64,000 nt of DNA, from the IMG/VR virus record IMGVR_UViG_3300037440_000222; one strand, written 5' to 3'. The translations under genes and the position numbers were made by a program. The DNA is from a virus. Shown here piece by piece: positions 8,101 through 8,514 of the stretch (positions are counted from its first letter, which is position 1; the number at the start of each line of letters is the position of its first letter). The notes under the pieces are model-generated. The model was not told where the DNA came from. It worked only from the letters and a program-made list of their open reading frames with translations, and did not search any database.

Positions 8101-8224
8101 GGTATTCAATAGATGGCGGTGCGTTATCCGTTTTTCAGCCTAATCCAGCCTCGGCATTGAAGTCGTCGCTTCCCTGACAGATAAACGCCTTACCGCTGGC
8201 TTGACCGCCACCTATTGAATATCC
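8101..8224 (-). ncRNA. structured spacer RNA H1 (17-19 bp closing stem around an ~85-nt core)
   Basis: ATTCAATAGGTGGCGGT pairs with ACCGCCATCTATTGAAT on the minus strand with one G.U. The same position is A.C on the plus strand. Lies inside the tRNA operon. Confidence 0.45.
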
Positions 8225-8238
8225 AATGTTAATGTTGT

Positions 8239-8388
8239 ATCAAGCATAAAGAGAGACCGCCTGCCTCGTCTTATACCCACATCCTCGTCACGGACAAAAT
8301 GTGGCTCAACTTCAATTCGTCAGGGATGCTACCCGTGTCGTATCATTGCCCTGCAACTACTCGCAGGCAGTCCCTCTTTATGCTTGAT
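8239..8388 (-). ncRNA. structured spacer RNA H2 (26-bp closing stem, ~100-nt branched core)
   Basis: 15 Watson-Crick pairs plus 11 more including two G.U on the minus strand. Both are mismatches on the plus strand. Internal hairpins CAGGG.../...CCCTG and CCACAT/ATGTGG. Confidence 0.45.
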
Positions 8389-8514
8389 TATTTTGTTAAA
8401 GTACTATTGCAACAAATTGGGGTGGGGTCTGTACAAGGTAGTTGACACACCTTCTGCGGCAACCCCACCCCGACCCGTCATCGCGGGACGCATGTAACGA
8501 TGACTACCGCATAG

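Follow-up and report, generated by a model that had tools for sequence, protein, structure and literature searches.

Analysis of a 64,000-nucleotide (nt) stretch of phage DNA (IMG/VR record IMGVR_UViG_3300037440_000222; the whole stretch is hereafter the window) revealed that H1, an inverted-repeat element (8101..8224, minus strand) between two transfer RNA (tRNA) genes, and E0 (7695..7789, minus strand), a second copy in the same operon, share a conserved RNA fold of 55-90 nt that contains a pseudoknot. The 17-nt repeat common to H1 and E0 was the starting point of the family search; matched as a pattern against 2.9 million viral contigs, it led to 17 motif copies in 15 phage contigs, with one fold common to all. 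We tentatively propose that the H1 motif may be a new class of self-cleaving ribozyme punctuating phage transcripts, although a non-catalytic cis-acting element is a close rival. H1 is one of four inverted repeats, H1 to H4, that lie side by side in the window.

Members of the family share the layout of a closing helix P1 ending in GGU/ACC, followed by CRNN, the P2a segment YCAGM, GGUAA, one pair, a bulged G and the helix P3, the loop of which holds P2b; pairing of P2b with P2a makes the pseudoknot. P1 and P3 are stacked end to end, with the 5' strand between them forming a 14-nt loop-out (CRNN, YCAGM and GGUAA), the central five bases of which make P2 with the P3 loop. At the base of P3 are one pair that covaries freely and a bulged G that is invariant, peripheral loops range from 4 to 35 nt, and the smallest members have a core of 53-59 nt, the shortest being those of L021 (1501-1561), L371 (2459-2523) and L215 (3997-4072; contigs and loci are cited by L numbers where they must be told apart). 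P1 measures 3-11 base pairs (bp) in the other members and 3-18 bp when H1 is included, and because of this variation the long stem of H1 is incidental. The combination of GCCAGC-GGUAA with a bulge-loop pseudoknot may resemble helix 18 of 16S ribosomal RNA.

In H1, the unusually long P1 is formed by P1a (8221-8204) and P1b (8120-8103), and the conserved core (8188..8206, minus strand) comprises the GGU that ends P1a, CAAG (8203-8200), P2a CCAGC (8199-8195), GGUAA (8194-8190), the single pair 8189:8121 and the bulged G at 8188. P2b (GCUGG; 8145..8149, minus strand) lies in the P3 loop and closes the pseudoknot with 8199-8195. The family model scores H1 at 59 bits and E0 at 43 bits; E0, located 21 nt past tRNA-Arg, has a P1 of just 5 bp, and its P2 differs from that of H1 by two compensatory changes. 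Both the pseudoknot and this paralog had been overlooked in the preliminary description of the sequence, which presented H1 as a rod-like element.

Support for the family does not come only from its own selection, because 71 distinct viral sites were picked on the 17-base pattern alone. P1 and P3 formed in 11 of these sites, compared to 0.3 expected from shuffled flanks. The bulged G was present in 10 of the 11 structured sites versus 27 of 72 background sites, and P2b was found in all 10 structured sites with a bulged G (chance, 0.235 each). Nine of the 11 structured sites, versus 6 of 60 other pattern sites, were intergenic, and the one true member flagged as coding, L226, overlaps an antisense frame only. 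All four Watson-Crick forms occur at the pair after GGUAA (four G-C, four A-U, five C-G and three U-A), all of 16 members form P3 pairs 1-3, each of which shows three to four pair types, the outer P2 pairs covary, and the helices hold six G.U but no A.C pairs. The covariation score, for an alignment fitted to the model, was 0.855, compared to 0.207 when shuffled and at most 0.17 when slid. The idea that selection acts on a minus-strand RNA, put forward in the preliminary description, was supported and, for H1, demonstrated through covariation among homologues.

Scans with individual elements left free delimited the core further. With P2 free, only CAG-type members turned up, and with GGUAA free, no convincing variant was found; with CAAG free, the scan recovered CAGU, CAUG, CAGG and CGCA, so that only the C and the following purine are fixed. 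Four degenerate-looking members (L193, L209, L380 and L411) were left out of the counts, and L207 and L390 are near-duplicates. Pattern matches within genes (L001, L234, L248, L217, L219 and others) were rejected as members, as were H2, considered as a divergent H1-type member (no model match), and a rod at 3565-3768, which the model search rejected.

Comparison with Rfam 15 gave no match over H1 or E0 (E-values up to 10) or over 17 other copies (E-values up to 5-10), and a full-text literature search with the core sequence found no paper, the ZWD repository and the 10,006 viral candidates of PMC10690425 lying outside this comparison. Judged by Rfam 15 and the literature searched, the H1-type fold is a new, uncatalogued phage RNA family, with novelty covering the fold only.

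All 17 copies are sense to their own operon. Thirteen lie between protein genes of no common function, often 2-25 nt past a stop codon, and four adjoin tRNA or tRNA-like genes, including the L210 copy, which begins 3 nt past tRNA-Thr and takes up the whole gap between tRNA-Thr and tRNA-Arg. Some copies stand just before a ribosome-binding site (within 10 nt in L021, L032, L037 and L403), the L201 copy is about 60 nt past a consensus promoter, and two genomes have two copies each, those of L215 lying inside a repeated leader of about 100 nt. Most members lack a U tail, which led us to reject a terminator role, and stop-codon read-through was rejected as a general role because no reading frame exists at the copies flanked by tRNAs. 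A Ro60-like or TROVE gene was found in none of 16 carrier records, six of them at least 90% complete, and the motif was absent from 26 records in the related phage group that bears Ro60, three complete records among them being confirmed to have the Ro60-like gene. Since there are carriers without Ro60 and Ro60-bearing relatives without the motif, the motif moves among unrelated phages independently of Ro60.

Self-cleavage ranks first among the readings of this motif because the pseudoknot, fixed core, free periphery and scattered sense placement match those of phage hammerheads and theta ribozymes. From the observed structure and distribution we infer catalysis, a cut site and a purpose as follows. 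The invariant unpaired bases (C, GGUAA and the bulged G) would pack against P1 and P2 to form an active site, which would cut the RNA backbone by internal transesterification, like known small ribozymes. Cutting would split long phage transcripts into gene- or tRNA-sized pieces without host nucleases; in the window, the precursor would be cut just before tRNA-Ile and just after tRNA-Arg, and H2 to H4 would be separate lineage-specific cargo at a variable operon slot. RtcB handles cyclic-phosphate and 5'-OH ends, and we count the RtcB gene of this phage in favor of the ribozyme. The broader proposal of a class that cuts phage messenger RNA and tRNA precursors, possibly joined here by a natural variant type-GCS hammerhead in H2, is held somewhat more tentatively.

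As in recognized ribozyme classes, the motif combines a compact, covariation-backed fold with an invariant core and variable periphery, and it is intergenic, sense, repeated within genomes and without a constant neighbor gene; hammerheads flank inconstant prophage genes (PMC3088659), and theta ribozymes adjoin phage tRNAs (PMC10879173). Ribozymes of phage operons, specifically hammerhead (PMC3088659) and twister, pistol, hatchet and twister-sister (PMC6765202, PMC10085705), resemble the motif in size, pseudoknotted fold, small invariant core, variable loops, intergenic sense sites by inconstant genes and more than one copy per genome. In contrast, the motif has none of the core sequences or topologies of known small ribozymes and no Rfam match (E-values up to 10): the hammerhead blocks CUGAnGA, GAAA and UH are absent from its invariant columns, and the copies have no Rfam match to twister, twister-sister, pistol or hatchet, for which helix order was compared by eye as a lead-level check. 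The theta ribozymes, which are hepatitis delta virus (HDV)-like and tRNA-associated (PMC10879173), are likewise small pseudoknotted RNAs next to phage tRNAs, as are the L210 copy and E0. However, the motif has three helices and a single pseudoknot inside the closing stem rather than a nested double pseudoknot, its junctions (CRNN and GGUAA) hold no equivalent of the J4/2 cytosine, and most copies are not at tRNA 3' ends.

Several points weigh against self-cleavage. No known ribozyme was found near any member (Rfam, six complete carriers), the closest being a marginal pistol match (L542 5680-5760, minus strand, 35.8 bits) about 25 kb from the H1 motif in a carrier genome, and no circularly permuted copy of the motif was found. 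The sequence-invariant pairs (GGU/ACC and CAG/CUG) fit protein recognition equally well, the search patterns themselves imposed part of the core invariance, and several motifs with ribozyme-like features failed to cleave when tested (PMC5737381). The known natural self-cleaving ribozymes make up about ten classes (PMC10085705), and with every new one have come new chemistry and tools; the H1 motif is short and covariation-backed, and its candidate core bases are named. Even without cleavage, this would remain a new and conserved phage RNA fold, passed between unrelated phages and operons, which would point to an unknown host target. Separately, descriptor searches turned up canonical-looking hammerheads of type II in L417 (about 3190-3260, plus strand), scoring below the Rfam gathering score, and of type I in L441 (about 3400-3480, minus strand).

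Nearly as likely as a self-cleaving class is a possible non-catalytic cis element, which would bind a host or phage protein such as RNA polymerase or an antitermination factor, or block an exoribonuclease, and might thereby protect or extend its own transcript segment, like the put RNA of HK022. The sense, intergenic copies, often shortly past a stop codon or before a ribosome-binding site and in L201 shortly past a promoter, would suit this role, but no partner gene recurs beside members and, because P1 joins both ends of the motif, no 5' strand is left free for the ring threading of viral exoribonuclease-resistant RNAs. The invariant pairs and the invariant flipped G recall put RNA, a phage cis RNA of about 70 nt with an essential unpaired-looking G (G35; PMC9378689). 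Nevertheless, put RNA consists of two tandem stem-loops with a triplex, is tied to early promoters and operons and binds the RNA polymerase zinc domain, whereas the H1 motif is a bulge-loop pseudoknot found at any operon position. Considerably less probable is a role in trans, in which the motif and H2 would be stable small RNAs trimmed from the transcript, for example as decoys, like RnaC and RnaD of T4. Paired ends suit a discrete RNA, related phages hold other end-paired elements of 60-170 nt among their tRNAs, and T4 RnaC and RnaD are expressed, with function unknown (PMC9697503); yet 13 of the 17 copies sit between protein genes and lack their own promoter or terminator, and P1 can shrink to 3 bp. 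RnaC and RnaD, together with GOLLD and ROOL (PMC9697503, PMC5737381), are, like H1, structured non-tRNA cargo co-transcribed with phage tRNAs and of unknown function, but the motif is far smaller than GOLLD or ROOL, has no model match and lies mostly outside tRNA clusters.

A small-molecule aptamer of riboswitch type is improbable. Its compact pseudoknot and invariant junction are features typical of aptamers, and the four copies with a ribosome-binding site within 10 nt downstream are suitably placed, but the downstream genes have no common function, four copies have only tRNA genes as neighbors, and no alternative terminator or anti-Shine-Dalgarno helix recurs. Less probable again is the reading of the preliminary description, which took the stems for processing cassettes of ribonuclease III (RNase III) or ligands of the phage Ro60-like protein. 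The 26-bp stem of H2 and the stacked P1 and P3 of H1 are long enough for RNase III, and the phage does code a Ro60-like protein. However, the long stem is not kept in the family, where P1 is 3-11 bp elsewhere, relatives have no such insert (8 nt) at the same junction, and the motif and Ro60 otherwise occur in different genomes, as the 16 carrier and 26 Ro60-group records illustrate. Because long P1 is unconserved and six complete carriers lack Ro60, both the RNase III and the Ro60 readings largely fail for H1. H1 does resemble Y RNAs and the YrlA class (PMC4201824, RF02553) in its size (80-130 nt), its long closing stem and a genome with genes for a Ro60-like protein and RtcB, but it has neither the Ro-binding motif nor T or D arms, and it does not co-occur with Ro60 across genomes. 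The motif GNCGAAN0-1G is absent from H1 to H4, the 5' strand of H1 reading GGUCAAG (PMC4201824), no tRNA or YrlA model matched T or D stem-loops in 8101-8504, and H1 lies 6.6 kb from the Ro60 gene, whereas Y RNAs lie within about 4 kb on the same strand.

All four inverted repeats are present where the preliminary description had placed them, and their stems are genuine and belong to the minus (tRNA) strand. For H1, the reported GG/CC extension was found, past a 1-nt bulge, but the closing stem (arms 8103-8120/8204-8221) is 18 bp rather than 17 bp on the minus strand (17 Watson-Crick pairs and one G.U). The 26-bp closing stem of H2 (arms 8239-8264/8363-8388) was as described, with two of its pairs G.U. 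As had also been noted, the imperfect positions of H1 and H2 (8113/8211, 8254/8373 and 8258/8369) are A.C or C.A on the plus strand and G.U on the minus strand. The same strand pattern recurs at the next pair of H3 (8429/8461) and of H4 (8484/8497), and the resulting five of five (1 in 32 under a 50:50 null) is suggestive only. When the 421-nt spacer that holds H1 to H4 was dinucleotide-shuffled 300 times, no stem was longer than 16 bp, compared to the observed 26 bp (H2) and 18 bp (H1), while a stem of at least 11 bp, the length of H3, was common by chance (43 of 300 shuffles), and the 8 bp of H4 also fall within chance. H1 and H2 are thus far above chance, H3 is moderate and H4 weak. Minus-strand folding z-scores were -4.7 for H1, -8.3 for H2, -4.0 for H3 (-4.3 on the plus strand) and -2.5 for H4, and are inflated because the folded segments were trimmed to the hairpins. 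Inside H1 to H4 there was neither a T-loop nor a tRNA model match, in agreement with the earlier failure to see a T-loop-like motif, and the Rfam 15 search proposed at that stage gave no real match in H1 to H4 (E-values up to 10), the sole match over H3 being a microRNA model at 19 bits versus a cut-off of 83. Treating the four elements as a single unit was unsupported. H1 is a family member, and no homologue of H2 to H4 was found.

H2 (8239..8388, minus strand) has a 26-bp stem closing two hairpins, and its predicted lowest-energy fold is a three-way junction with two complementary loops, in which 8339-8333 could pair with about 8293-8289. Its stem, known from a single sequence with no homologue, has the length of an RNase III substrate and may well be cut by RNase III. 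H2 also contains hammerhead-like blocks in the order G, C, S (8279..8348, minus strand), with GAUA at 8344, CUGACGA at 8323-8317 and a putative site at 8285/8284. In an alternative modelled fold, CUGACGA and GAUA would be in register with stems I (6 bp), II (4 bp) and III (7 of 8), and the linker from stem III to stem I would be just 3 nt. A type-GCS hammerhead likewise has its GA-block, CUGAnGA and site block in the order G, C, S, a permutation still without natural support (PMC10085705). H2 differs from it in having C-G instead of A-U at 15.1-16.1 and a U inserted in GAAA (GAUA); the U13a insertion is tolerated in nature, but C-G at 15.1-16.1 is not listed as active (PMC3088659). In addition, a more stable nested fold competes, and H2 is a single sequence without covariation. 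A strict descriptor matched in 1 of 20,000 shuffles, but because a looser one gave several equal-scoring chance matches among about 2,700 sites, we downgraded the hammerhead to a lead, and it is doubtful that H2 is a natural variant type-GCS hammerhead with a defective core. H3 (8419..8471, minus strand) combines an 11-bp G/C-rich stem and an irregular inner helix, shows about the same folding propensity on either strand and has no homologue; H4 (8477..8504, minus strand) is an 8-bp hairpin 9 nt past tRNA-Met and within chance range. Until homologues come to light, both should be regarded as ordinary spacer hairpins.

The window comes from a 79-kb phage contig (Logan SRR12683079), among whose products are a terminase-like protein, RtcB, a UvrD helicase, an actin-like protein and a VWA protein that is Ro60-like, its best PDB matches being RO60 and TROVE proteins. 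On the minus strand, the tRNA operon runs from a promoter-like site through tRNA-Met, H4, H3, H2 and H1 to tRNA-Ile and tRNA-Arg. The σ70-type site (9398..9426, minus strand) matches 11 of 12 consensus bases, a consensus match only, and is likely the start of the operon transcript. tRNA-Met(CAT) (8514..8586, minus strand) is the upstream neighbor of the hairpin block, and tRNA-Ile(TAT) (8019..8092, minus strand) begins 8-10 nt past H1. Further operon spacers contain stable hairpins at 8741-8812, 8592-8663 and 7885-8018 (minus strand; z about -2.7 to -4.8), for which no homologues were found. Three tRNA-like units (9108-9242, 8814-8920 and 8935-8998, minus strand) have a common D-loop insert of about 55 nt (UUGUACG...CGURCC...ACAAAC), which is found in relatives (L040 8172-8541, and L042 and L043 directly past the HNH gene), occurs free-standing too and is kept across the related phage group.

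Phages with HNH and Ro60-like genes in common with this one have tRNA clusters too, in which the Met(CAT)-Ile(TAT) order often recurs. The preliminary description had made conservation in related phages a test of its elements, and H1 to H4 were missing at the same Met-Ile junction, which is 8 nt in L130 and L180 and holds unrelated end-paired inserts of 110-170 nt in L065 and L179. Since relatives have 8 nt or unrelated inserts there, the junction is a variable cargo slot and not a required processing cassette. These inserts were rejected as H1 orthologues, with no likeness by sequence or model. Neither BLAST nor nhmmer found H1 to H4 in about 140 related phage loci identified via the neighboring HNH and Ro60-like genes, GenBank phages and plasmids gave chance matches only, and H2 to H4 were not found in 42 whole viral records, where the best match was chance. 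The same-phage contig L039 gave no variants because it is 100% identical.

Other structured RNAs were seen among the tRNA genes of these relatives. A conserved branched RNA of about 105 nt lies past tRNA-Met (L056 8885-8978, L065 10553-10652 and L148 9127-9230), has no Rfam match among the matches listed and is followed in some relatives by a 55-nt rod, seen also in L140, L150 and L176. An element family of about 115 nt, closed by 15-16-bp stems, lies between tRNA genes (L058 2566-2680, L180 2574-2686 and L055 4593-4709). In L042, three end-paired RNAs (4126-4290, 5056-5145 and 5228-5435) start with GCGGUGUGGAA; two end in a T-arm-like hairpin, and all three resemble YrlA-type tRNA mimics that carry long inserts. 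Repeats of about 30 nt (core AGTGCATCGCATAGATGCAA) with unique spacers beside the phage tRNA cluster of L051 (62-379) and L134 (221-472; positions in the extracted segments) look like a small CRISPR-like (clustered regularly interspaced short palindromic repeat) array. L065 contains a permuted transfer-messenger RNA (2644-2933; Rfam RF04321, 101 bits). Finally, ARAGORN identified tRNAs in relatives with TCA (selenocysteine/opal; L055 4963 and L056 5288) or TTA (ochre; L045 5196, L055 10004 and L148 9422) anticodons, which may reflect stop-codon suppression.
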